DNA of 63,994 bases, counting the filler, from Sphacelaria rigidula (taxonomy: Eukaryota), in NCBI GenBank assembly GCA_964200075.2. It is 3 parts of 3 records of this genome, joined end to end, with 100 filler letters (N's around TTAATTAATTAA, not from the genome) between each part and the next. Parts side by side here need not be neighbours in the genome. Positions count along the whole stretch, not along the records: positions 21,564 to 42,995 come from CAXNAA020000422.1; 2 more parts are not named here. One strand, written 5' to 3'. Made by a program: the position numbers and the translations under genes. A model generated the notes under the pieces. The model worked only from the letters and a program-made list of their open reading frames with translations, searched no databases and had not been told where the DNA came from. Below are positions 2,514-43,095 of this stretch, in pieces. Each line of letters starts with the position of its first letter. The first letter of the stretch is position 1.

Positions 2514-5500
2514 GTACTTTTCCCATTGTTGTCGTACACCTGAGAAGTGACGTGGTACATTTTTGCTGTCAGTTTCCTCGACCATGAGCAACAAGATGCG
2601 GGAGAATAGAACCCGACGATGTCTTTGGCGATTGTTAATCGACGATGGTTGCAAGGCTCAACACCAGCATCAAGAAGTAATAATGGATGATACCGTGCTT
2701 CATCGCGGCACACCGGTGAGTCCGTTTGAACATGTAACGCCGTGATGGTTGTTCAGATCGATCTAGACTTCGAGGTAGTAGTCTCATGCCATGTTCGCCT
2801 ACCATGCAGCTACCCAGGTATGGTGTTGCAAGGTACACTTCTTGGCGGGACGGACCTGCGCTATGTGGATGTGGCGTTCAGTCGTGACGGCGCACGCGTA
2901 GCAGCTTTCGGAAATCGAACGGACCATCTAGCGACCGTATGGAATGTGAAGAAGGCTACATCAGATGGTGAAGGACTCACGGGAGAAAAAGTGCGCCACG
3001 TACCTGCGAAAGGACATCCGCGAGACTGTCACGTTTTGTAACGACGTAAACACTTTTGTAGCATGGGTACAAAACCGATTTGAAAAATTAAAGCGAGGGC
3101 GAGTGGGTGATTCAGCTCAGGCAGATTTCGTCCGCGTTCGGTCTTATCGTGACCGCGGGGGCCTCTCCGTTCGTAGGTGGTGGAAGCCGTCCTTCCTGGC
3201 GACATGTCTTTCCTCAGCTTCAATCCTGCGGATTCTGATCAGCTGTGCATTGGTGGAGCCAGCGGCCTTTACTTCTGGAGGGTCGACAATCTAGTGGACA
3301 ATTGGGTGAGCACACAAATAAAGTCACAGTATACAATGCTGGTCTCGCGGCATGCTTGTATTCTACTCAAGAACGACGATAAAATAAGAAAGGTGAGCCG
3401 AGGGACACGTTCGAATAAAACTACCTGGTAAACCTACGGTGCCGATCATACCTACCTACTCTTTATCACGTCGGATCCCCTTGATTCCCTCCTCCACCCG
3501 TGGTGCATGTTTCGTCATCAAGGTTATCTCTCCAATTAAGGCCAAAGTACCCACACCAGTGGGCAAGCGACGATCGTTCACAGATGACGATGACCTGGAG
3601 GATGACTTTGCTAACGTAGCAGCCGGTGCCGCCAGCAACGCTGACGTGCCCGAAGCGATCGATTCGGTCGTTCCGCCGGCGGCCCCTACCGATGTGGCCA
3701 CAGCTTGCACTAACCACGCTCCTGAGGTGCCGAGCAGGCCGAAAACAGCAGATGCAGCGGGTGCCGTCGCCGCGGCCGAGATATTTCAGCTGGAGAGTCT
3801 TGTTACCATGGGAGATGGAAAGCAAGATGCTTACACTTGCCATTGTTGGGGACTCGAGGGCACCCTGTGGGCCGTCAATGAGCCTGGGCAACTGGTGGGT
3901 GCACTGTGGAAAACCACGTCTATGAATGAGATAAGCGGATAAGTTGTTTTTACTGTAGCGAATTTATCCATATAGAGACAACAACTCATATTTGACGTAC
4001 GTCACGTCAATATCTGAAACGCTATGTTTTTTAATCGAGATTTCATCCATTACCATGGGTGACACGAAGACTCGAATTTTGAATGAAAGAGTCTCTCCCA
4101 CGGCAGTGTTCGGCGCAGTCTACAGTGACTAATGTTTGTGCGTTTTGGCTGGTCATGTCGCCGCGCCCCCGTGGTCTGAGTGGGTATATCCTCGAATCAG
4201 CTACGGCGGAATTGAGCATTCGAATCGCAGCAGATATGGGATTTCTGTAAGGAGTATCTGATTTCCGTCGTTCGACAGATGAGGGCATGAGTAGCAAGAA
4301 TCTTTGACGAAAGTCGACGCAGGGTGGGAGTGCTGATCCAATCCACGATACCGACGCCAGGCATGTGCCGGGGGAAAGACGATTTGTTCTCTTCAGATTA
4401 CTCGTACGGGTTTGTCTCGAGAAAGGAGAGGGGCTAAAAGTTTAACGAGGAAAGTGAAATGTCCCTCAGGACAATGTTCTATAGCCTCCGCCAGACGATC
4501 TGGACAAGGAGGGCTTTCAACGAGGGACTCCTCCAGTATCACTGGCCTCGTGCTCGACAAGTCCTTTCTTCTAACTTGTTATTATCTCGGAGTGATCCAA
4601 AAACAGATCATGAGCCAGAAAGCAAGGAACCACGCAGATCAACCGCAGTTTATGCAGTTCCTTCAAAACAAATTCAGGAGCAGGAGAATAAATCTTGCGA
4701 AGAGACTCCCACGCACGTTCTTCAGCACCGTACCCGTCCCAATCGACCGAAACAATGGCATCACCATTGTCATCCTCAGCGACGTGCACCAAAGCATTCA
4801 TTCGACATTCACCTTGAGCATACGAATGCTGAAATACATTTTTTAGTTCCGCAGTGATGTGCAACTGCGAGTCAGCATAGAAACGCAAACGAGCGACATG
4901 GACGGAGTGTACGGCGCTAGAAACAATCTTCTGCACCGAATACACGTGGGCGTGATCGGCTCCGACCACTCGCCACGGACCTGTCCAACATCAACTTGGG
5001 CGTCACATCTTGCCTACGAACACTTCAACTGCAAACTTGGGCAAAACAGCCTGGACCTGAACAAGCTTGCGTTTGGTTCCGCGAGACACCGCGAAAGCAG
5101 CTTGCACTTCGTTACAAAACCGCACTTGCTCGTCCACCACGCCTCGAACCTTGTCACGCAACGTATCAGCATCCATGACACCGGCGTTCCACTCGCCGCT
5201 AGTGACAGAAGCCAGCGCGGAAAACGCTGTACGTGGCGCATGCCCAAACATCACACAATACGGAGTGTTGCGGTAGCGTTCACGAAAATAAGTATTCAAC
5301 GCCGACTGAACGGCTGGCAAAACATCAACCCATTCAGACACTGGTCGTCTCTGTTCCGACAAAATAGACCGCAACGCACGAATAACCTCTTCCACCATGC
5401 GTTCACAAGCACCATTCGACCAAAGGGTGTACGCAACAGCAAATTGGTGCTGTACCTTCAGCGCATCGCTCAGCTGCGCGATTACTTGATTCTTGAAGTG

Positions 5501-8500
5501 CGTGGCATCACTAACCCAAACACGCAGCACCCCAAAATTCTTGCACCATTGCAGCAAGTGCGTAGCCGTAACCTCGGCAGTGCAAGCCTCGGTCGGCTCC
5601 AACCAAAGGAAATTGGACAAATCATCCATGATGACCAAAACGTACCGAAAACCATCCCCATCAGGCAAACCATCAGGACCTACACGTCCGCTACTTCTGA
5701 CGTACAGAAAATCAAAGTGAACAACTTCACCTGGCGCCGTACCATGCACGGTATCGCCGTACAGACGAGGTACAATCGCACCAGCACGAGTGTCTACACA
5801 ATGCAAACACTGGCGAAGGAACTCGCGAACGTGGGAATCCATGTGAGGCCACACAAAGTATTCTTTCAAACGAAACAGAGTCGGCGCCACACGACGGTGA
5901 CCAGTCGACCGCATGTGAGCACACACCATCAAGCGAGTTTGTAGAGCCTCATCATCCGACGGAATCCACAAAGCATAACTACTGCCAACACGCACGCGAA
6001 ACAAACCATCGTCAGCCAAGGCAGCTTGACCGAAAGTCATAGGAACAGAATGAACACCGTCGTCGCCCGTTTTGCGCTGCGCGGTACGAATGGCATCTAA
6101 CGAGGGCAGCGAATCATCGGCATCACACGGGTTGTACACGGTAACAGAACGAACAGGCACGGTAGGAACCGTCACCCAGCGAGACAACAAATCTCCCCAA
6201 TAATTACTCTCTCCAGGAATGTTTTCGGTGGCATACCGATATTGGCCGAGCACTCCTTTTCACTTTCCAAGCCGTTGTGCCATGGCCTTCGTCACCGATG
6301 TGAAACACTCTTCGGGGTTCAAAATCTATTTCAAATTGCGATGATCAGTGAAAATGCGAACACCACCCTAAAGCAGGTACTCTAGCCTTCGAAATGTATT
6401 GACTATCGCGAAACCTACTTTGACCACTGCCGCTCACCGCAACTGTGAACCCTTGAAGCTATCACTCAGAAAAGCCAACGCTTTGTGTGACATGTTTTCG
6501 GGCGCAATGCCACTTCTAAACTCGGCGACAGGCACTTGCGTTAAAAAACTACCCCAGTGGAAATCCGAAGCATCTGGAAACATCAGAACAACGCACCCTG
6601 GACGAGGATGATACAGCGGCACCGCTTGCGCCCCCGAATCTTGCGCAGCACGTCATGCCCGCACACGATCCTCCGTCCAAGCGTCCTCCGGGATGTTACG
6701 ATTACGCGCCACCCGCTTTGTCCGACGCGAAGTCCCGACCATAAGTTGTTCCAAAAACACACGAAGGGGCGCAACTTCTTCCGCCATGCGCGGGAGCGAA
6801 GTCCGCACCCAATTCACCGCCCGCAGAAGCTGCATCATCTCACTAGCGGTTTGAGGACGTCGCATATTGCTCGAACCTTGGGTGCGGACGGGATCATGCG
6901 AAACAGTACCTTTGGAGTACACCTTACCACACCAAACCACTTCGTGGGCAAAAAAAGAGCACTTATGCGCAGCGACGAACAGACCAACACTCTCCAAGCG
7001 GCCAAGAATTTCGTCAAGCACAGCTAACAATGCTTCTTCGGTTTCAGCAAAATAGAGAATGTCATCCACCTACACTTTGCAGTTTAGATCTCGCAAAATG
7101 TCAGTCAGCACACATTAGAAACACGCCGTGGCGTTCAGCAAGCCCTGCGGGACATAAACAAACCGTCAGGCGTGACGATCGTGAAGATCTCCTGAGCGTC
7201 CGGTGCCAGAGCCATCTGCCAATACCCCTGAAGCAGGTCCAACTTGACGAAGCATTGGGCTCTCAGCAACTCCCGCATGTCTTCTTGGCTTGGCATCACC
7301 CCCGGAGACTGTTCCACTTACCTGTTCACCGCCTGATAGTCGCTGACCAAAGAGAATGTATCCCTCTTCGGCACCGCCATCGCCGGACTCGCCCACATAG
7401 CCTGGATGTTCCTAATCACTAATCAAACAGCACCAAAGCTGCGATGCATGAAGCAAGCCTCCCGGTCTTCACCGGATCATAACGTCGGGGCTTGGCCTTC
7501 ATAGTATTTGCCTGTGGCTTTAGTTGCACCCTCATGGGCTCTACGCGCGCTGGCGGGTCACCACGAAGCGCACGACGAAAGGTATCCACGCGACGAGCCA
7601 AAATATCACGCAGACAATGTGCGCCATCGGCGCTCAGGCCCTTCTGTTCGGCCTGCTGCACGCTATCCTCTAGCGCACGTTCTCTTGCACCTCTCTTCTC
7701 CGCTGGGTCCATGAACATGTCGGGCCCCCGATCGACTAACCGCTCCACCGCTTCATCCGCAGGAGCCTCCTCCTCATTGGCGCTCTGGAATGACCGTATG
7801 GATACGGTCACACGCCTCGCAGCAAGATATCTGGGGTTTTTCACGCCGGTTTGCACCGGCCCAGCACGAGGGCGTAGCTTATCCAACGCCAGCGGATACA
7901 AATCAATCCCGAGCTCCTTCACCGCCGCCATCCCAAACAAAACCACGTTGTCCCTGCCGGGCATGACAGCCAAGGTGGTGGGCTGCAACTCCACAGCCCC
8001 CCACGGCGTACGCACGCTCAAAAACAGTAATCGGCACCGTTTTATGTGTAACCGTCACGGGAGCACCCGTGGCGGTCTGTGCCGTATGCGGTCCATTTTC
8101 GAACGGAATCTGCACCTGCGCGCCGCCCAACTGCGAAGACATTTGTTCTTGCAACCTCACACCGATCGACGTGAGCGCGGACCCAGAATCCAGAATAACA
8201 CGGGCCATGAACGAACCTATGGAACCAGGCAAGGAAAGATCCGCGCGTAAACATTCAGTTGCAATCGACAGGTACCATGCCTGGCGAAGAACCCTAGTCG
8301 GTACCAAGATTCACCTGACGCCAGGGCTGCGCTCCAGAACTTGGCATCGATAATTGGGAATCGACGGTCCACCTAGACCACGTCGCCGAATATGCAGACG
8401 CTGTTACAGCCGTCGCAGCAGTAGGAGATGCACCAGCCACGGAGCCTGCTTGGCCGAGGGGTTGCGAACTATTCGCTCCAGCACTCCCCATCGAAGTATT

Positions 8501-11500
8501 TGCAGTTCCCACGTACACAGTCCGCCCCGACACGGACGAACCAGAAGATCCAGAGTCACCACCTGCTGACGTAGTGGAAGAAACAGCAGCGGAGGAACCG
8601 CCGTCCGCCGCCGATTGCTTGCTACCACGGCCACTGCGCCCGCGTCTATTTTTGGCACGGCCCCGTCCACCGTGACGACAGTCTCGAGATCCTGATGAAT
8701 CTCGCGCATTTCCCTGAGCAGCGCCTTGAGCGCGAGGCTTGGGGCAGTTCTCAATCAGGTGTCCGTTGTCGCCGCAGTTGTAACACGCGCGAGTGGACGA
8801 CGCTCGCGAAGACGGCTGCTGTTTCTCTTGCCGTTGTTGTTTGCGACTCGTACCACCTGCATTTGCCGCAGAGTCGCGCCGGCCATGCGCCTCGATGAAC
8901 TTCCAGTGGTCGGCGGCATCAAATATTTTGTTGAACGCCACCGTCGGATTCTTTTTTCAACCGTCTACATACGTTAGTACCCTTCTAACATGCGCCTTGA
9001 ATTCCGGAGGCGAAATCCCGCCCAACTAAGCTGTGGAAACCGACTCGGCCGGGCCTGGCAATCAGCTCCTGTCCTCCGCACGGTACATGGCTTGCACCGT
9101 CAGGTTTTCAGCGAAAAACTGTTTCATCGATGAATTGACCATCATCGCTCTATCCTTGACGGATGCTCCACCGCTTTGCGGCATAGTAAGAACTGTACGC
9201 AGGTCTGCTGTAGCCCGCGCAGTGTTCTGTTTGCTACCGGTCGTGGCGTGCCTGGCATACTGCTTCACAGCATCTAGCAATTCCTCGTGGGTCATAGCAC
9301 GGCGGTCCTTGTACATGCCTTCGAAGCCCCGATGAATGTGTGTAGGGATGAGTTGACCTATGCTCACCCTAGCATGCCTTACAACTCCTTGAGCATTCAC
9401 GAGGTACCAACGCTCCACGTAGTCGAAATATTTGGCGTATAAAACTCTTGATGCTTCCTCGGTCCACACCTTGGCATACGTTGGCGGGTCTAGCGGCTCA
9501 CTTAACACCAGCGGCGCTGCCGCCGCTTGAGCCATGTCGTCTAGGATTCAAACACCTCACGGAGAGACTCTTGCCTGACTTGTGCGTCCACCAGCCCACG
9601 GAGTGTCTTCCACTGCTGTGCGCTTCAAATCGTCTCCTTCCGACTGCAGGCCAAACTGGCTTCCAGCTGCGGCCCCTCTCCTCAGCCAAACTCCTCCAAC
9701 AGAGTGCCGAAAAGATATCTAGATATTATAGCCTCTGCCAGACGATCTGGACCAGAGGACTTTCAACGAGGGACTCCTCCAGTGTCACTGGCTTCGTGCT
9801 CGACAAGTCCTTTCTTCTAACTTGTTTTTATCTCGGAGTGATCCAGAAACAGACCACGAGCCAGGCAGCAAGGGGTCATACGGATAAGGGCCATCGATTG
9901 AGGATCCCCTGTCCCCTGCCACTGCTTCAATCATGCATGCGATTATACTGAAACCTACGGCTTGGTATCTTTTGGCTACAGTTCACACCGACTGCATGTT
10001 GTCTTGATCAATGTTTGCATGCGAACTTTAACCCTTTGGCCAGTGGTATGGGTTCTACCCCGAGGGACATAAATGTCTCGAGTGGGATATTTGTTCACCG
10101 GGTGGAATTCAGGGAGCGTTTGTGGAGTGTTTGTGGCATTCACGATGCACAGGTACCGGCTTCCTACACTGAGGGTGATATGGAACGGTACCATCTGCGC
10201 CATAAGATCGACAAAAGTATCCTTTGATGTAGACACGCGGGTTTTCGCGCCCAGTTTCGCTGACCCCTTCGCCGATCGACAGACGAAAGCCATGAATGTA
10301 ACCTGCTTGCCTTGTCGCTTTGTTGCCCAGGCGTGCTTCGACGCCAACACGGGCAGGTACTCCACGTGCATCACTCTTGGTCGGGTGTCGGAAAATGCGA
10401 ACGTTGGCGGGTGGAAGGCGGTTGGTCTGCTCATGACAAAGACACACCTTATTGTTACAGGGAATGACGGTTCCATCGATTGGCTGACCCTTCCAGAAGA
10501 GCCTGATGACCATCTCAAGGTACGTTTTTGCAATAGTCTGCGTTCTCTTCGATCTTTCGTACTTGACTTCTTGCATGTCCTACGCACAACCGCTCGAGTT
10601 TTGCACCAGGGCTTTTACGGGAGAACGGAACGGGACGGGAAATTTCCCGTTCCATTGAACGATGACGGGAAGCGACGAGAACGTTCCCATTGTCAAAGAA
10701 CTTACGGAACAAGACGGGACAGGACGGGGCAGGACGGGACGGAATAGGACGGGAACTTCCCGTCCGGTTTCGACAAGAAAATGAAGACCGTTCTGTGAGG
10801 TTTCCGTCCCGCCTGTTCCGACATCACGAGAAATGTGTGCTCTAACGCCGAAGTATCTCCGGTGAGACGAGAATTTTGTGCAAGCGATGCCTTCACGCAT
10901 AAGAAAACAAAACAGATCACAGGTGTATTACTTTGTATGAGAGATATGACTCACATCAGGCAAGATCCAAACATATCCCACGATATCTTCAGTTTCCTGT
11001 GAGATTGGGCGGGATTTTCCCGTTTCACTTACGGGACGTCCCGTGGGGACGGACGTCCCATCCCGCCGTTTGTCCCGTGAGGTATTTTTCCCGTGAAGAC
11101 CCTGGTTTGCATATCTGAAATGTTGGTAGGCCATACCAACCTTCCGGCAGTTGCGATTGGTCAACGGTGCGGTTGATCCGTTCGCTGTCCCATGATAGGT
11201 GGAGTTCTCGATTATCTTGCAAGCCTACGACGGCACCCAATGCCCGGCCGTGGCAATGGCATGCAGCCCCCTCTACGACAAGATGGTGGTGGGATCTGCC
11301 GACGGAAGGTGCTAAGCACACTCATAGCGCTTTTTGTTTTGCCAAACTTTCAGTCCCTCTACCCCTCCTTGGGACGAGTCCCTAGTCTCAAGGGATCAAT
11401 CCATCTCTACTCCGAGGATTTACCCGACATTTTGGTATCGCCGATTGGATCAGCACCCCCGCGTAGCGCCGACACTCGAACTTTCGCTGCTGCTCACGTC

Positions 11501-21463: not shown

Positions 21464-21563
21464 NNNNNNNNNNNNNNNNNNNNNNNNNNNNNNNNNNNNN
21501 NNNNNNNTTAATTAATTAANNNNNNNNNNNNNNNNNNNNNNNNNNNNNNNNNNNNNNNNNNNN
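21464..21563. other. Assembly gap / artificial scaffold linker
   Basis: 100 bp of N with central TTAATTAATTAA (stops in all six frames). Confidence 0.98.
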
Positions 21564-21714
21564 GTACACGCAGCCCAGACACGTGGAATGGCACAAAAGT
21601 TGCGTGGATACCCCTTGGACCTGCGATCGACTTTTTTCTCCCTTATGGGCAATCAGACCGAAGAAATCGTGAATTTGGTGACTTTTGAGTCCGTGATGAT
21701 TTGTCCTAACCGTG
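21564..21714. mobile_element. Family B hAT-like MITE, truncated by the gap
   Basis: Matches 35817-35965. Confidence 0.7.
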
Positions 21715-35707: not shown

Positions 35708-35965
35708 CAAGGGTCGGACAATTCAATCACTCGTCTGTAAATTACTTGGTTTTAGTGTGACAGATTCGAATCGTACGAATCAATCCCTAGGCTTTGTTTT
35801 CTGCGTTGCAACCTACGTACACGCAGCCCAGACACGTGGAATGGCGTAACGGTTGCATGGATACCCCTTGGACCAGCGTTCAACTCTTTTCTCCCTTTCG
35901 GGCAATCAGGCCGACGAAATCGTGGATTTAGTTATTCGAACCCGTGATGATTCGTCCTAACCGTG
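35708..35965. mobile_element. Family B hAT-like MITE, full length
   Basis: Imperfect TIRs caagggtcggacaattc / gattcgtcctaaccgtg; degenerate 8-bp TSD caagatta / cgagatca. Confidence 0.7.
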
Positions 35966-38498
35966 CGAGATCACAAGGCAATCAACGCCGCTGTTCAGCA
36001 GCACAAAGCTGCTCAGTGTGTGCATGCATACAGAAGCGGCAATAGCACACTCTACGGTACATGCAGGGCAGCCGTACAGTTGGATCACTATGCAGTAGAG
36101 TTCATGGCTGCAGACAACGGACAGTACAGCCACCGCTGCTTTGTACGCACATGGGTCATAGCAAAAATCACGGTGTGCGGACGTACCTGTCGTGGTGTGA
36201 AACGCGCCAAACGCTTCCAGAGTCATGACACATGGCTATCGAAGCTGTTCTCGGGAAATGTCACTGCCCGAAGTTCTTGAAAAGTTTTCGCATCATAAAA
36301 AGCGGCCTCGACAAGAGTATCGAAGAAAACGTATGAATATTCCCAGGAATCGATTGGCAGTTTGAAGTGCCAGCCTTACCTAGGAGCCCCACGAAGTATA
36401 GTCGCCGCGGGTTTCAATGGTGTTTTTTCTCGAGGCACGGGTGTTTCATGGTCTCATCACTGAATAACGTGCTTCCAGGTACAGTACGCCATACGCGTAA
36501 TCTTTGGTACGATACGGTACGACACGAGACCAGAGAGTGGCAATACGTTTGTCGTTGTAAATGGGATGCATGATGTTGCGTTTTCGCGGTATGGTACGGT
36601 CCTGGGTTCGCACGTTAGTGTGCAAATCACGGAGAGTGTGAATATACGGTTTTCAATACGAAATATTTGGTGAGCAGAAGGAAGCCCTGCCCCCGGTTTT
36701 ACTATCGTGCTGGAAGAAGCTGCAATTCAAGCCTCACCTCACCCATCGGCCATATACGTCGAGAATATCTATTTCTATACCGTGAAACGTGTTGCGACAT
36801 TTGTGACGTGGTGCTGGCGTCTTCTGGTTTCTTGATCTGCTTTTCGAGGCCCTTATTTACGCGTTAATTTTTCCCTCATCGCATGTTGACGCTTGTCCCC
36901 TCTCCCTCCGTTAAAACCTCAGTGTGTGTGTTGTTCAAAGCAGCTTCACCGATGATGCTGTATTGTCGATTGCTGCTCGTGACTTGATGTGGAGATCGCT
37001 TCGTTCTCTCTTTTTGAAAACGACACTGTCACGTTCTGGTCCTGCAGTCATTCTCGGGGCATCTTTCATCGCCCTAAGCGTTACTTCAGCTGGAGGTCAG
37101 CTGAGGGGCCTGACGGATGCTTGCGTTTCCGTCATGTTTCTTGCAAAGTTCTCCCTCGATATATTTTCGCCACGCCCGAATATTGTCATCCCTGAAGGTG
37201 AAGAGACGGTCATGGCTTTCGTGCTTGCGGATCCACAAGTCACAATCGTGACTCCCGAGCAGTCCCGATGCCAAGTACACCAACCTCGGTGTTTCTCCAC
37301 TGCGCCACATGGAAAATCGTCCCACAAGACATAGCTACTCAAGTCCCTGTAGCCCCACGGCGTTACACGCTCACCGTCCGCACGGCCCGCATATAACCCC
37401 TGTATGGTGTCATCTCAATGTCTCGAGCCGTAAATCGCCGCTTGATACGAGTAGATAACCCCTGTCTAGTGCCATGCCAATATCGTGAGCCGTGAAGCAT
37501 CGCTTGGTGGGAGTATGAGTATGTCCAAGCGTCTTTTTTCCGCATCCAGGTGTTCTTGCGTAATGCTCACGAGCCCAACACTCTACTAGCTCATTTGAGT
37601 TTAGTCCGCCCAGTCAAGGAGGTATGGGCATCAGTGTTTGCACTCTCCAGGAAAGAGCGCAGCAGCAGAGTGATATATATTCGAGAAGCATCTATTTCCA
37701 CAAGTCACTGCCCTTCGATGCTCTGCATCTTTTCAATACAGGTGGCGTCAGGGGCTACTGATGTAGGCACAGTTTCCTGCTGTCATGCAGCCTGGCGAGT
37801 GCCGTTTAGCGGGTTCAGTATTATCATGCATAATCCCCCTGTCAGTACCCACCGTCATCGCACCCAGTGTGAGCACCTTTTCCTACCAACACAAGGAACC
37901 GGTACATTCCCCAGCAGCATCTAATAGTACGCGGAGCACGTAATGAATCTGTCATATATGTGGATTGTCGGTGCCTGTCAGTTTCTGCTCGCAGGTCACA
38001 GTCGCAATAACTGAGCTACCCAGGTAATATAACGCCCGATGCGAGGCGCACAAGGCAGAGTGGTCGTTGTCTCGTCGTGTGTTGGGCATTTGTTTTGGCG
38101 AGAGAAACCATACTAGCGACGTCAACACGATAGATTTATGTGCATGTTGAGAGGTGAACACCCCTCGCTTTGTCGTCCCGTCCTGCAACAGAAACATCGG
38201 CACTGTGGTCCTTAGCGAGAAGGCTCTCGTCCCCCCCAGAGCGACCGTGCTCTTGTAGCTCTCCTTGTCTGCTGACTCCACGGGCGAGTCTTGTGCCCGT
38301 TCCAGTATTATGATGAAACATCACCTACATTTCACACAGGCACATGCTGCCGTCTTTGCTTGTTGATTGGTGCAGACCCCTGCTGTGAGGGTGAGCGGGT
38401 GTTACGTGAACAGCGGAGAGGGATACTCCAATCATCCATCGTCCGGTGCATCTGGTGACTGAGTAGTAGAGGTTTGTGCCAACTACTCAAAGGTGGCC

Positions 38499-40470
38499 AT
38501 GGTCAACGTGATGAGAAGGCGGTGCCGTGAGGTTGACTGCCCTAAACAGTCGTCGTTCGGTGCACCCAGTGACGGAAAAGCGGAGTTCTGCGCCAGCCAC
38601 TCCAAGACGGGCATGATTAACGTAGTGAGCAAGCGGTGCCGCGAGGTTGGCTGCTCCAAGCAGCCATCGTTCGGTGCAGTCGGTGACAGGAAGGCGGAGT
38701 TCTGCTTCACACACGCCAGGGCGAACATGGTCAACGTTAAGGGCAACCGGTGCCGCAAGGAGGGCTGCTCCACATACCCATCATTCGGCGTAGTCGGTGG
38801 CAGGAAACCGGAGTTCTGCTTCACACACGCCCTGGCGGGCATGGTCAACGTCACGAGCTACCGGTGCCGCAAGGAGGGCTGCTCTACACAGGCTTCGTTC
38901 GGTGCAGCCGGTGGCAAGAAGGCGAAGTTCTGCGCTACACACGCCCTGGCGTGTATGGTCAATGTGGTGAGCAAGCAATGCGGCGAAGAAGGCTGCTCCA
39001 AACAACCATCGCACGGTGCAGCCGGTGGCGGTAAGGCAGACTTCTGCGCTACACACGCCCGCGTGGGTATGGTTAATGTAACAAACCGGCGGTGCCGCAA
39101 GGAGGGCTGCTCCAAATACGCATCATTCGGTGGAGCCAGTGGCAAGAAGGCGGAGTTCTGCGCCACGCACGCCCGAGCGGGCATGGTCAATATAGTAAGC
39201 CAGCGATGCAGCGAAAAAGGATGCTCCAAGTTCGCATCATTCGGTGCAGCCAGTGGCAAGAAGGCGGACTTCTGCGCCACACACGCCCGGGCGGGCATGG
39301 TCAATGTACTACGAAAGAGATGCAGCGTAGAGGGCTGCTCCAAGTACGCATCGTCCCGTGCAGCCGGTGACAAGAAGACAGGGTTGTGCGCCACACACGC
39401 CCGGATAGTGCTGGTCAGTTCACACGCCCCGGTGGCAATGGTCAATGTAGTAAGCAAGCGGTGTGGCGAAGAAGGCTGCTCCAACCTCGCATCGCACGGT
39501 GCAGCCGGTGGCACGAAGGCAGAGCTTTGCGCATCGCACGCCCGGGAGGGCATGGTTGACGTAATAAGGAAGTGGTGCGGCGAAGAAGGCTGCTCTAAAC
39601 ACCCATCGTTCGGTGCAGCCGTTGGTAGCAAGGCGGAATTCTGCGCCACACATGCCCCGGAGGGTATGGTCGAGGTCGCAAGCAAGCGGTGCGGCCAAAA
39701 GGAATGCTCCAAGTATGCATCGTTCGGTGCAGCCGATGGCATGAAAGTGGAGTTCTGCGCCATACATTCCAGGGCAGCTATGGTCAATGTCGTAAGCAAG
39801 CGGTGTGGTGAAGAGGGCTGCTTCAAGCACCCATCGTTCGCTACAGCCGGTGGCAGGAAAGCGGAGTTCTGCGCCACACATGCCAGGCCGGGTATGGTCA
39901 ATGTCATCAGCAAAAAGCGGTGCTGCGAAGAGGGGTGCTCCAAACACCCATCGTTCGGTGCAGCCGGTAGTGTGAAGGCGGAGTTCTGCGCCACACATGC
40001 CAGGGCGGGTATGGTCAATGTCATCAGCAAGAAGCGGTGCGGCGAAGAGGGATGCTCGAAACACCCATCGTTTGGTGCAGCCGGCGGCGGGAAAGCAGAG
40101 TTCTGCGCCACACACGCAAGGGCGGGCATGGTCAATGTCATCAGCAAGAAGCGGTGCGGTAAAGAGGGATGCTCGAAACACCCATCGTTCGGTGCAGCCG
40201 ATGGCGGGAAAGCGGAGTTCTGCGCCGCACACGCAAGCTCGGGCATGATCAATGTCGTGAGCAAGCGTTGCGGCAAGGTCGGCTACTCCAGACGACTATC
40301 ATCTGGTGCAGCCGGTAGCGGGAAGGATGTCTCCTGCGCCACACACGCCAGGGCGGGTATGATCGATGTCGTGAGCAAGCGGTGCGGCGAGGAGGGCTGC
40401 CCCGAACGCGCATGGCTCGGTGCAGCGGGTGGCGAGGAGGAACTTTGCGGCACACGCACCCGCACAGCCT
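38499..40470 (+). repeat. 114/117-bp coding tandem repeat array (17 units)
   Basis: Unit ATGs at 38499, 38613, 38727, 38841, 38955, 39069, 39183, 39297, 39438, 39552, 39666, 39780, 39894, 40011, 40128, 40245, 40359. Confidence 0.95.
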
Positions 40471-41192
40471 CTGTGTACGGCGAGGAATGTGCCTCGCAGC
40501 GTTGTTCCAAGGAGGTGCAGGAGCACGGGAATTCCTGCCATCATGCTGCACACAACTTGGACACTGCGTCTGATCCAGCAGGACATGCCCGCGGGAAGAA
40601 CCGCCTGGACGGTGACTCAGCCGTGAGAGAGACTTGTGTTGGTATCGATGGACGTGATGAAAGATCCGGCCATCCACCGAAGGCTAGTACCACCACGAGC
40701 GATGGTTGCCGTGAGTCTAATGTTCAGGATAGCTCGCGTGTCGTTCGTGAAGGACGACCGGGTACACGTTCTACGATCACGTCGTCTGCCACCTTCGGAC
40801 CGCCTCCTGGCGCGGCGGCAGATAAGATTTCTCTAAATGGGCTGGTGATGTGCATGAAGATGGAAATGGAGATGACAATTGCGCCAGCTCGAGTTTTTGA
40901 GGGGGTTCTGGCGAGAAGTAGCGGCGCACTGGATACTGCGCGATCTAGCAGTTCGGACAGCATGGGCAGTGACGGATGCAGCAGCACTACTACAAAAAGG
41001 AGCGACGGTAGTAGCATCAGCAGAGGAAGCAGCACGAAGCGGCGACGTCGGACGGCGCAGGTGGAGCCGGTGTTCGATGCAACAGCGGGAAACAGGGTGA
41101 TTTCGGAAAAGGGAGCCATAAAATTAGAATTGGACGTGTCTGCTCCTTCTCGTCACGTGTCCTCACCTTCATCCTGCCGGCCAGAGAGGTAG
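38499..41192 (+). CDS. EsV-1-7 cysteine-rich repeat protein (17 tandem repeats plus Ser-rich tail)
   Basis: Uninterrupted ~897-aa ORF from the first ATG. Repeat consensus MVNVVSKRCGEEGCSKHPSFGAAGGGKAEFCATHARAG (C-x4-C-x16-C-x2-H) matches the EsV-1-7 motif known from brown algae and Ectocarpus siliculosus virus-1. Confidence 0.9.
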   Translation: MVNVMRRRCREVDCPKQSSFGAPSDGKAEFCASHSKTGMINVVSKRCREVGCSKQPSFGAVGDRKAEFCFTHARANMVNVKGNRCRKEGCSTYPSFGVVGGRKPEFCFTHALAGMVNVTSYRCRKEGCSTQASFGAAGGKKAKFCATHALACMVNVVSKQCGEEGCSKQPSHGAAGGGKADFCATHARVGMVNVTNRRCRKEGCSKYASFGGASGKKAEFCATHARAGMVNIVSQRCSEKGCSKFASFGAASGKKADFCATHARAGMVNVLRKRCSVEGCSKYASSRAAGDKKTGLCATHARIVLVSSHAPVAMVNVVSKRCGEEGCSNLASHGAAGGTKAELCASHAREGMVDVIRKWCGEEGCSKHPSFGAAVGSKAEFCATHAPEGMVEVASKRCGQKECSKYASFGAADGMKVEFCAIHSRAAMVNVVSKRCGEEGCFKHPSFATAGGRKAEFCATHARPGMVNVISKKRCCEEGCSKHPSFGAAGSVKAEFCATHARAGMVNVISKKRCGEEGCSKHPSFGAAGGGKAEFCATHARAGMVNVISKKRCGKEGCSKHPSFGAADGGKAEFCAAHASSGMINVVSKRCGKVGYSRRLSSGAAGSGKDVSCATHARAGMIDVVSKRCGEEGCPERAWLGAAGGEEELCGTRTRTASVYGEECASQRCSKEVQEHGNSCHHAAHNLDTASDPAGHARGKNRLDGDSAVRETCVGIDGRDERSGHPPKASTTTSDGCRESNVQDSSRVVREGRPGTRSTITSSATFGPPPGAAADKISLNGLVMCMKMEMEMTIAPARVFEGVLARSSGALDTARSSSSDSMGSDGCSSTTTKRSDGSSISRGSSTKRRRRTAQVEPVFDATAGNRVISEKGAIKLELDVSAPSRHVSSPSSCRPER

Positions 41193-42995
41193 CTTGATCA
41201 AAAAGGTCGTGCACGCCTGTTTCTACGGCTGATATTCGGCATAGTGCTGTTTACAGTAGCAGGCCTAACCCTAACCCTGTGCACAGGTCATGATATCGCA
41301 TGAACTCCGCGATAGATACGAGTTTGGTTGTTCCCATGTCGTGTGTTGCCGCTGTGTTGAGATGTTAAGTGGGGTATGAGGCGGGTGCTTCATCATGTTT
41401 GTAGAGTATGTTTTCTGCGAGACGGTGGTATTTTGCTAGTTAATACTTCGGCTTTCCGAGCTCAATCGGCCCGTTGTTTGTGGTTCCCTGAATTCATTCA
41501 GCAGGTCGCCGTGCAGAAAGGTGCAGTTGTAGCCGTACCTCATACCGCCGCGCCGAAGTGATGTTACTAGTTCGTCTAAAATATGTCAGGGCGGAAGGGT
41601 GACAGTTCGAAGCTCGAGAGTTTCGTATTTTTTTACCGTGTCTAAATCCCGTCTTTATGAGCGTCAGGACATATATTTCTCAAGAGTCGACGCGGTGCGG
41701 CAGTACCGGTCCAATCCGCTGCACCATATCGTGGGCCATTTTCCAGGGGAAAATGGGTTGATTCCGTGACACCGCACACGCGTCCCGAGGGATTAGGGAG
41801 GTCTTGAGTGGGACGAGAAACTTACAGTAAATGCGCGGGTCGTACCATCTCTTCCCTCGCGACATGAATGATTCCGTAGTTGTGCCTAGCGTCAACAGTG
41901 CGCGCCTGCGAGACACACCACCAGCAGTAGATGGTGGACTAGTGAGGTGGTTACGAACTGCGTAGCGGCATGGCGCACGCATATCATGCACGCTTCACGT
42001 ATAATAGGCCAGGGTACTACAAGCGGAGGTGCGATACCCGAGCCTGCCCCTGCAGGCACCTGGGGCGATCTCAAGCTTATGGGTGCCGTCTGGTTGAGAA
42101 ACATCCGCACTGAGATTGAGTTGCTGTACGCAGGCTGGTTCGCGCTCATGACCCCAAGTTCATTCTTCCGCAAAAGGTCACGCCAATTCTTGGTGCGAGA
42201 CTCTGAAGTTCGGCACCCGTATATACGTTTGATAACTTCGAAACCTTCAGCGTATTCGCTTCGCCGGTCATTATCGATACCGTAGAAACCACTTTCGATG
42301 GGCTTTTGTTTGCCGTTAGATTTTTGAGTTGATGGCCGTTACGATAGGTTGAAAGGCCTCGAAACCAAATCAGGCTATGTACCCCCTTTTAGTTGTCCAT
42401 GACGGGCAGTATGGCAGGCTTATGTGCGACGATTTGGTACGTGGTACTTCAAAAGGCTCTCAAGACCTGAGGGAGGACGGCTTCTCCTTCCCCCAGCCAG
42501 GCATTGATAAACGAGGAAATACTTTTGACACGCTGATACAACAGAAATGGGGGCCCGGAGAAGTTTCTTTCCATCAAAATCCGTACTTTTCAATCTGCAA
42601 AGCGTTCCAAACGCATTGTTTTCCAATACGAACGGTAACTTGTCGAGTTCTGTTCCGTACCTGACGCACTGAGTGATGCCGATTCCCGAAAAGCTTGGTG
42701 TTGCTGTTCCATGGTATCCTCGGATCTTTAACCGGACCCGAAGCGACCACCTTCCCTCAGGTTTTGAGAGCCGTTCGAATTGTGTGGATGAGCTTCATAA
42801 AAATGAACTCTCTAGCTTTCACAGATGTTGCGACTTCGGTGCAGCATGTTAACCGTGGCTACCTCTGAGCAGACAGGAGGACGCGCGGTAGAGCAAGGAA
42901 AGGTAGCTATGATCCGGTCTGCCTGCCGTATTGCCGACAGCATCGCGTGAAAGCCACAAGACCCTTGCTGTCGGCGGTTGATGGCGTGGGTCTCG

Positions 42996-43095
42996 NNNNN
43001 NNNNNNNNNNNNNNNNNNNNNNNNNNNNNNNNNNNNNNNTTAATTAATTAANNNNNNNNNNNNNNNNNNNNNNNNNNNNNNNNNNNNNNNNNNNN
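42996..43095. other. Assembly gap / artificial scaffold linker
   Basis: 100 bp of N with central TTAATTAATTAA. Confidence 0.98.

Follow-up and report, generated by a model that had tools for sequence, protein, structure and literature searches.

A stretch of 63,994 nucleotides from the brown alga Sphacelaria rigidula (assembly GCA_964200075.2; three parts joined end to end with filler, referred to here in its full length as the window) carries a gene for a long tandem array of EsV-1-7 units, and the question raised by this locus is what might be recognised by an array whose scaffold is conserved while only some residues change from unit to unit. An earlier note had taken it for a candidate modular recognition protein in the manner of transcription activator-like effectors (TALEs), with residues 5–7 and 17–18 of each unit reading one base or a short word. 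The part of the window that bears the gene comprises positions 21,564–42,995 and derives from CAXNAA020000422.1. Judged by its sequence, this is a genuine and intact gene of the EsV-1-7 family known from brown algae, of which it is an unusually long member. For the proposal that its array binds nucleic acid and makes unit-specific contacts through position 17 and positions 5/6, we see about an even chance.

The protein is encoded on the plus strand by a single open reading frame (ORF) of 899 aa at 38493–41192, which is open from a GTG at 38493 and has its first ATG at 38499, with only two ORF residues ahead of unit 1. From this ATG to the TAG at 41190–41192 the coding sequence (38499–41192, 897 codons plus stop) can be read as a single exon, no intron being required. 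A Pfam search assigned the protein to PF19114 (EsV_1_7_cys) with an expectation (E) value of 1.5e-205 and 665.1 bits against a cut-off of 25, distributed over 16 stretches. Tandem Repeats Finder detected a period of 114 nt over 38498–39404 and 39438–40438, and a hidden Markov model (HMM) built from the array's own units resolved 17 tandem units at 38499–40472 on the plus strand. These findings bear out the 17-unit EsV-1-7 array described in the earlier note, and the residues which it had listed for positions 5–7 and 17–18 proved to be exact letter for letter. The note had also described a near-invariant scaffold of 38 or 39 aa with the spacing C-x4-C-x16-C-x2-H. This spacing is intact in 15 of the 17 units, namely units 1–8 (38499–39437) and 9–15 (39438–40244), but units 16 and 17 (40245–40472) are decayed: in unit 16 the second cysteine (Cys14) is replaced by tyrosine, and unit 17 reads C-x4-C-x15-C-x2-R, with a spacer one residue shorter and arginine for histidine. 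Their HMM scores of 44.6 and 33.7 bits, respectively, compare with 70–83 bits for units 1–15. The typical unit length is 38 aa; an extra lysine extends units 13–15 to 39 aa, and unit 8 reaches 47 aa by a 9-aa insertion past its histidine, the last 11 residues of this unit lying at 39405–39437. On the DNA level, units 12–15 are recent duplicates with 84–92% mutual identity, compared to 54–83% for other unit pairs. The array contains 102 lysine and arginine residues against 52 aspartate and glutamate residues, resulting in a net charge of +50. No zf-C2H2 family was matched in the window protein by Pfam at E <= 0.01, and the ligand spacing of these fingers differs as well; besides PF19114 Pfam returned only a sub-threshold match to the WRKY19-type finger PF24906 (Zf_WRKY19; one stretch, 16.6 bits against a cut-off of 27, E 0.0071).

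A known member of the family, IMMEDIATE UPRIGHT (IMM), was reportedly described by Macaisne et al. in 2017. As far as the accessible portions of the published sources go, the EsV-1-7 family is strongly expanded in brown algae, tends to form tandem gene clusters and includes IMM; its proteins form the largest of all orthogroups in brown-algal genomes (2026 preprint), and gene numbers of 234–335 are given for some kelps and fucoids. The same portions describe IMM as a regulator of early development with five repeats and call it a protein of unknown function, with the EsV-1-7 motif as a possible new zinc finger, and they mention no other Pfam domains for the Ectocarpus members. In agreement with the earlier note, which had pointed to both the expansion and the missing ligand, no established ligand or molecular function for EsV-1-7 proteins was found in the literature searched. 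The gene in the window resembles IMM and the family at large in being a brown-algal host gene with PF19114 units in tandem and no other Pfam domain, but it differs from IMM by its 17 units and by a subfamily-specific tail of 239 aa. IMM orthologues are defined, according to the portions of the sources available, by an IMM-specific amino-terminal domain. Such a domain is absent ahead of the repeats here, and the gene is therefore not an IMM orthologue by the published criterion, the IMM sequence itself not having been compared. With 17 units the array was the longest among the proteins retrieved, a retrieval limited by length and rank, the next longest having 14 units; the named brown-algal proteins retrieved have at most seven intact units each.

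Which residues differ between the units was evaluated by Shannon entropy over all 17 units, positions 1–8 of units 13–15 being one register off in this table due to the extra lysine. Position 26 showed the highest value (2.65 bits), followed by positions 5 (2.53), 17 (2.35), 37 (2.02), 6 (1.85), 29 and 36 (both 1.73), 10 (1.61) and 18 (1.52), the last with an alternation of A, P and S only, whereas positions 19, 32 and 33 are nearly fixed as S, A and T. Pairwise differences of 0.84 and 0.79 were obtained for positions 5 and 17, respectively. The two variable sites claimed before are thus recovered insofar as positions 5 and 17 rank among the top three, but position 26 is equally variable and position 18 contributes little. 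The ratio of nonsynonymous to synonymous substitution rates (dN/dS) was calculated among units 1–15 by the Nei–Gojobori method and yielded values which, owing to few codons and to gene conversion among paralogous units, are rough: 0.36 for all positions, 0.30 outside positions 5–7 and 17–18, 0.77 for positions 5–7, 1.29 for positions 17–18, 0.96 for these two sites together and 1.08 for positions 5, 17 and 26. The ratio at the two sites is higher than at the remaining positions (0.77–1.29 versus 0.30), but it is about 1 and not clearly more. The 60 ligand codons of units 1–15 showed a dN of 0 at a dS of 0.82, and the scaffold is thus under purifying selection.

These values also bear on the possibility that the gene has no present function and is decaying as a relic, for instance of viral or transposon origin. 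The missing ligands in units 16 and 17 would fit such a relic, as would the remnant of a long terminal repeat (LTR) retrotransposon and the high-copy repeats found within the window. The unchanged ligand codons together with the low ratio in the scaffold argue, however, that the gene is not a relic, and in addition the frame of 899 codons is open, the next longest among the 28 window ORFs of at least 150 aa listed having 416 aa, and the tail behind the array is conserved, with 40% identity to that of a paralogue. We therefore consider a relic very improbable.

Comparison with other EsV-1-7 proteins demonstrated that part of this variation is a property of the family. Across 72 other proteins with at least five intact units, the difference between units of the same array was highest at positions 17 (0.81), 5 (0.80) and 6 (0.79), many further positions showing 0.70–0.75. 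The contrast was sharper in a brown-algal set of 45 named proteins with 177 intact units, 27 of these proteins having at least four: here positions 17 (0.78), 6 (0.76), 5 (0.66) and 36 (0.63) were followed by values of at most 0.57, and in 1000 bootstraps over the brown-algal proteins position 17 ranked among the top three in 997 and position 6 in 993. The residues found at position 17 in the 177 units include arginine (47), glutamine (31), histidine (26) and lysine (13), and position 6 is chiefly occupied by S, N, K, R, T or H. As a family property, positions 17 and 5/6 hence remain of the sites named in the earlier note, but positions 7 and 18 are not special. A coupling of positions 6 and 17 as a covarying pair was considered as well and rejected, since the pair was absent from the top 20 pairs by mutual information with average product correction.

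How positions 6 and 17 behave between proteins was analysed in viral arrays, for which 14 collinear nine-unit proteins with 51–84% array identity and at most four gap columns (the P0050 group) were available. Corresponding units of these proteins differed by only 0.15 at position 6 and 0.24 at position 17, compared to 0.74 and 0.80, respectively, between the units within one protein. Positions 6 and 17 are thereby the most conserved of the 18 positions with a between-unit difference of at least 0.70, whereas the surface positions 8, 11, 12, 15, 16, 32 and 33 differed by 0.59–0.72 between corresponding units. In nearly all 14 proteins, units 3–9 read R, N, Q, S/N, R, R, R at position 17 and H, S, H, N, H, H, N at position 6; the pattern is kept in three further loci with 49–53% identity and starts fading in two loci at 39–43%. 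Further collinear groups were obtained by 4-mer grouping of 241 repeat proteins, in which 16 of 16, 10 of 15, 8 of 9, 7 of 8 and 16 of 20 proteins were kept, and a sixth group (g596) was left out with one of four proteins kept. In these five groups corresponding units differed most at positions 33, 32, 19, 17, 15 and 6 (mean ranks 1.4–7.2). In the most uniform of them, g410, the difference reached 0.69–0.86 at positions 33, 17, 32, 19 and 6 compared to a median of 0.32, the rest of the scaffold being nearly fixed. Conservation of positions 6 and 17 among corresponding units was therefore rejected as a general rule for all lineages, as it holds in the P0050 group only and these positions are hypervariable in the five other groups. 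Both patterns, with each unit keeping its residues in one lineage and paralogues differing in them elsewhere, would be expected of specificity residues; the hypervariable pattern alone could also be explained by relaxed constraint or unit shuffling.

The viral relatives further indicate what kind of partner such arrays are joined to. A C-terminal extension of about 230 aa with the invariant motif P-D ... E-x-D-E-x-Q-H was observed in 54 of 118 homologues, and the metagenomic and giant-virus proteins consist of an EsV-1-7 array of 2–12 units, a Cys4 motif and a nuclease-like domain of about 160 aa, a layout for which no description was found in the literature searched. Their length classes (330, 372, 410, 445, 484, 518, 556 and 596 aa) step by about 38 aa. 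A search with the C-terminal part alone retrieved 403 proteins, the best 120 of which all carry PF19114, and an exhaustive profile search with this domain yielded 7129 clusters at E <= 0.001, with PF19114 in 84, zf-C2H2 in three and zf-A20 in two of the best 118 cluster representatives. In IMG/VR, 37 loci (L001–L037) encode relatives, many of them on contigs named as giant-virus metagenome-assembled genomes (MAGs); at L003, for instance, the array-nuclease gene (6001–7671) is located between the genes for the RNA polymerase subunit Rpb2 and a TFIIB-like protein. The same domain also occurs with other partners. At L036 (5266–7170) it is fused to canonical C2H2 fingers at either end (zf-H2C2_2, E 1.2e-43), at L032 (5236–6426), L033 (5689–6660) and L037 (5344–6378) it follows C-E-H-type Cys/His repeats of about 20 aa without a Pfam match, at L030 (4804–7332) it follows a Cys repeat of about 44 aa, and at L016 (5980–6456) and L017 it stands alone. 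Three of these genes, L009, L032 and L033, are located on one giant-virus MAG contig of 54,760 bp and combine the same domain with different arrays; the family is thus multi-copy within a virus genome.

Several observations hint at a nuclease fold for this domain. Its matches in Pfam all remained below threshold (MTES_1575 and Hjc in 2 of 24 proteins each, and a hint of DUF2726) and all belong to the PD-(D/E)xK nucleases; a profile search of the viral domain against PDB sequences gave no hits, and PHROGs and NCBIfam returned nothing useful for it. An AlphaFold2 model of the domain reached a predicted local distance difference test score (pLDDT) of 80.5 and a predicted template modelling score (pTM) of 0.78. 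Its secondary structure (helix 7–27, strands 51–54 and 59–64, helix 75–87, strand 93–98) follows the order helix, three strands, helix, strand, the typical PD-(D/E)xK arrangement. The best structural match was the catalytic domain of the homing endonuclease I-Bth0305I (Z 7.4, root-mean-square deviation (rmsd) 3.9, 95 of 98 residues aligned), followed by Vsr (Z 7.2, 126 of 155 aligned) and NGO0050 (Z 6.7), and the lower matches, among them Bax1, restriction enzymes, McrC, Hjc and VRR_NUC, were again mostly PD-(D/E)xK nucleases. Such nucleases also prevailed in the weak rows returned by Foldseek, none of which reached E <= 0.001 (best E 0.052). In view of these middling scores we refer to the domain as nuclease-like and not as a proven nuclease.

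A second fusion is known from Ectocarpus, where a Tc1/mariner transposase bears an N-terminal EsV-1-7 domain, according to the portion of the source available (PMC12477816). In both fusions the array takes the place expected of a domain that targets DNA, which constitutes the main, though indirect, reason for proposing DNA as ligand. Together, the viral domain architecture and the behaviour of positions 6 and 17 lend indirect support to a modular array that reads nucleic acid and make it plausible. The array might alternatively read RNA with one unit per nucleotide in the manner of pentatricopeptide repeat (PPR) or Pumilio-type (PUF) proteins, whose unit lengths are close to the 38-aa period found here; the basic units would suit this function, and nothing measured separates RNA from DNA. 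The fused partners, however, act on DNA, that is, the Vsr/homing-endonuclease-like domain and the Tc1/mariner transposase, and the array is substituted by C2H2 fingers ahead of the same domain, which leaves RNA reading quite improbable in our opinion.

The arrangement of the variable positions was examined in an AlphaFold2 model of units 1–8 based on 65 aligned relatives (mfae622b439a2; mean pLDDT 89.1, pTM 0.59). In this model, bridges occur at unit positions 8 and 17, both together in five of the eight units, hairpin strands at positions 20–21 and 30, and a short turn at positions 32–34, which carries Cys31 and His34, the last two ligands. The insertion of unit 8 is modelled as a helix (residues 298–308). 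A strand at positions 2–3 is present in units 2–8 and missing in unit 1 only, and M1–V4 are for this reason read as packing onto the preceding unit, with residues 5–7 as the joint. Given the bridge between positions 8 and 17 and the alternation of side chains, positions 6, 8, 15, 17 and 19 should come to lie on one face of the knuckle hairpin, and such a face would unite the variable sites.

The same model bears on the possibility that the array serves as a scaffold for binding proteins such as ubiquitin, with treble-clef units whose variable sites tune the choice of partner. Foldseek gave no match to the array model at E <= 0.001 and VIA-align no chain at Z >= 5 (best Z 3.4). The sole structural neighbours are a RING domain (2yhn_A, Z 3.4, rmsd 2.6, 43 residues aligned), B-box domains and A20 fingers (3oj3_I, Z 2.5, rmsd 1.8, 33 of 33 aligned), and two of the 118 viral-family relatives match zf-A20 in Pfam. 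All these Z values are, however, far below the level that is meaningful for the tool, the likeness being weak and non-significant and confined to single units, and the ligand spacing of A20, RING and B-box modules differs; to our knowledge these modules do not form comparable long head-to-tail arrays. The net charge of +50 and the recurrent fusion to a transposase and to a nuclease-like domain, the latter interchangeable with C2H2 arrays, argue likewise against a scaffold of this kind, which we regard as unlikely.

For an array that binds nucleic acid the following mechanism can be proposed. Each unit would bind one zinc via Cys9, Cys14, Cys31 and His34, as suggested by the invariance of these ligands (dN of 0) and by the secondary structure of the model, which brings them into a knuckle and a turn. 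The packing of the M1–V4 strand on the preceding unit might produce a fairly stiff rod with residues 5–7 as a joint, and the basic array could bind nucleic acid along its length, most probably double-stranded DNA. Unit-specific contacts would be made by residue 17 and residues 5/6 on either side of the first zinc knuckle, and the tail with its K-R-R-R-R motif might supply nuclear import and an effector function.

Several observations weigh against such unit-specific contacts, and some of them would be explained equally by DNA or chromatin binding that follows no code, with the array as a basic coat or architectural protein and positions 5–7, 17 and 26 simply as those surface residues that are under the least constraint. 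At the candidate sites the rate of evolution is near-neutral, with a dN/dS of about 1 compared to 0.30 elsewhere, which fits relaxed constraint or diversifying selection alike, and family-wide they show the highest entropy (3.2–3.4 bits). Position 26, the most variable in the window array, is unremarkable in the family, and the lack of covariation between positions 6 and 17 points in the same direction. The dipeptide H-P at positions 17–18 is found in 5 of the 15 intact units, in four of them via recent duplication, since units 12–15 are 84–92% identical in DNA; the run of H-P is thus not an independent choice. In the viral arrays, the conserved yet unit-specific pattern of the P0050 group did not recur in any of the five other groups, and positions 19, 32 and 33 are hypervariable there; as they are almost invariant in the window array, no more than a part of the surface that varies in the viral arrays can be in play here. 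The window protein itself possesses neither the P-D ... E-x-D-E-x-Q-H motif nor the nuclease-like domain, and the proteins with this domain are only 26–44% identical to it. The nuclease-fold matches of the domain all remain below Z 8 with Foldseek E values above 0.05, the weak neighbours of the array model (Z 2.2–3.4) are mostly protein-binding, and no binding report for any EsV-1-7 protein was found in the literature searched. The near-neutral dN/dS, the variable site 26 and the lack of a structural precedent weaken in particular the reading of single bases by positions 5–7 and 17–18 in this array. For a codeless coat, on the other hand, it is difficult to explain that the P0050 lineage fixes positions 6 and 17 per unit while its surface positions differ by 0.59–0.72, which means that these two positions are not unconstrained in general, and that g410 varies at five positions only, its scaffold being otherwise near-identical. 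Codeless binding therefore appears improbable to us.

Beyond the proposed nucleic-acid binding with contacts at positions 17 and 5/6, a far-reaching extension can be considered, in which EsV-1-7 arrays represent an unrecognised modular class of DNA-reading proteins. Positions 6 and 17, joined in some lineages by 5, 19, 32 and 33, would read either one base or a short word; in giant viruses the arrays would have been linked to a Vsr/homing-endonuclease-like domain as natural "zinc-finger nucleases"; and brown algae would have expanded the array without the nuclease as domesticated, sequence-specific regulators or genome-defence factors, with the 17-unit protein of the window and IMM as examples. 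This extension in its entirety is rather doubtful.

An analogy for it is provided by C2H2 arrays as in KRAB-ZNF proteins and engineered zinc-finger nucleases, which are likewise built from small tandem zinc modules with a conserved scaffold and few variable positions. A C2H2 array indeed replaces the EsV-1-7 array ahead of the same C-terminal domain in giant viruses. The ligand spacing differs, however (C-x4-C-x16-C-x2-H compared to C-x2-4-C-x12-H-x3-5-H), and the last two ligands of an EsV-1-7 unit are predicted by the model to lie in a short turn and not in a recognition helix; we know of no solved DNA complex for EsV-1-7 units. TALEs are similar in forming long arrays of near-identical units of comparable length, and g410 shows the same combination of few hypervariable positions and a near-invariant scaffold. 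EsV-1-7 units differ from them in being presumably zinc-dependent and mostly non-helical, they vary at five or more positions instead of one di-residue, and the units of the window array are less uniform, with only 62–92% DNA identity; nor are we aware of a base code for EsV-1-7 units. The viral array-nucleases, finally, possess homologous units with the same ligand spacing and have positions 6 and 17 among their main unit-specific sites; in contrast to the window protein they combine 2–12 units with a Cys4 motif and the nuclease-like domain of about 160 aa, and their positions 19, 32 and 33 are hypervariable. If EsV-1-7 arrays read DNA via a few positions, the role of the whole brown-algal expansion would become testable by means of motifs, targets and unit swaps, a large protein family of giant viruses would represent candidate site-specific nucleases, and the arrays might provide a new programmable scaffold for DNA binding. 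Should the variable sites prove to be no more than unconstrained, the locus would be an ordinary, albeit long, member of its family.

The array is followed by a serine-rich tail of 239 aa (40473–41189, plus strand), which is conserved within a subfamily of Sphacelaria rigidula paralogues. It aligned along its whole length with 13 of these paralogues and is 40% identical (E 4e-34) to the tail of one of them, P0002. Two motifs stand out in the tail alignment. The basic motif T-K-R-R-R-R-T (41034–41054, plus strand; T-K-R-x-R-R-T in the alignment), in which the lysine and one arginine are invariant in the 14 aligned tails, is a candidate nuclear-import signal, and a near-C-terminal motif I-K-L-E-L-D-V-S-A is encoded at 41118–41144 (plus strand) and conserved as K-L-E-L-x-D-V-S-A. 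The closest relatives of the window protein are three unnamed protein products of Sphacelaria rigidula with 504–541 aa and 47–53% identity; at least 27 further relatives of this species were found among the shorter matches (40–56% identity), and proteins of Ectocarpus, Pylaiella, Scytosiphon, Ascophyllum and Laminaria are among the relatives as well. In P0002–P0004 unit 1 likewise stands directly at the start of the protein; the paralogues have 7–8 units, and ligands are often missing in their last one or two units, too. Since the paralogues share the start, the decayed last units and the tail, the window gene belongs to a subfamily characterised by an array, decayed terminal units and a conserved tail.

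A six-frame scan of the window with the HMM built from the array's own units detected no second EsV-1-7 gene. The GC content amounts to 0.56–0.58 at 38000–42000 compared to 0.45–0.50 in the 8 kb on each side. A viral insertion as the context of the gene appears unlikely, as the array ORF is the sole long ORF, although no search aimed at viral hallmarks was made. Contigs of three small sequencing runs, the kind of which is only guessed and two of which possibly represent one data set, span approximately 38119–42574 without differences. They do not cover 35994–37969, where a large run continues, and a loose end lies at 42581; no bearing on transcription is drawn from them. Two high-copy repeat stretches flank the gene at 35747–35993 and 42416–42900, with contig depths in the large run of 268,275 and 165,736 compared to about 70 nearby. 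Within the array, ORFs of 472 aa (38858–40276) and 270 aa (39420–40232) on the minus strand repeat with its period and are most likely a by-product of repeat composition. In the first 20 kb, the GC-richest part is occupied by the LTR-retrotransposon remnant at 5003–8941 (minus strand), with one ORF at 5003–6253 carrying Integrase_H2C2 (4e-10) and rve (5.5e-08) domains and another at 8294–8941 carrying a zf-CCHC knuckle (4e-05). Paired runs of 44 N separated by 12 bases at 21464–21563 and 42996–43095 correspond in position to the filler that joins the three parts of the window.

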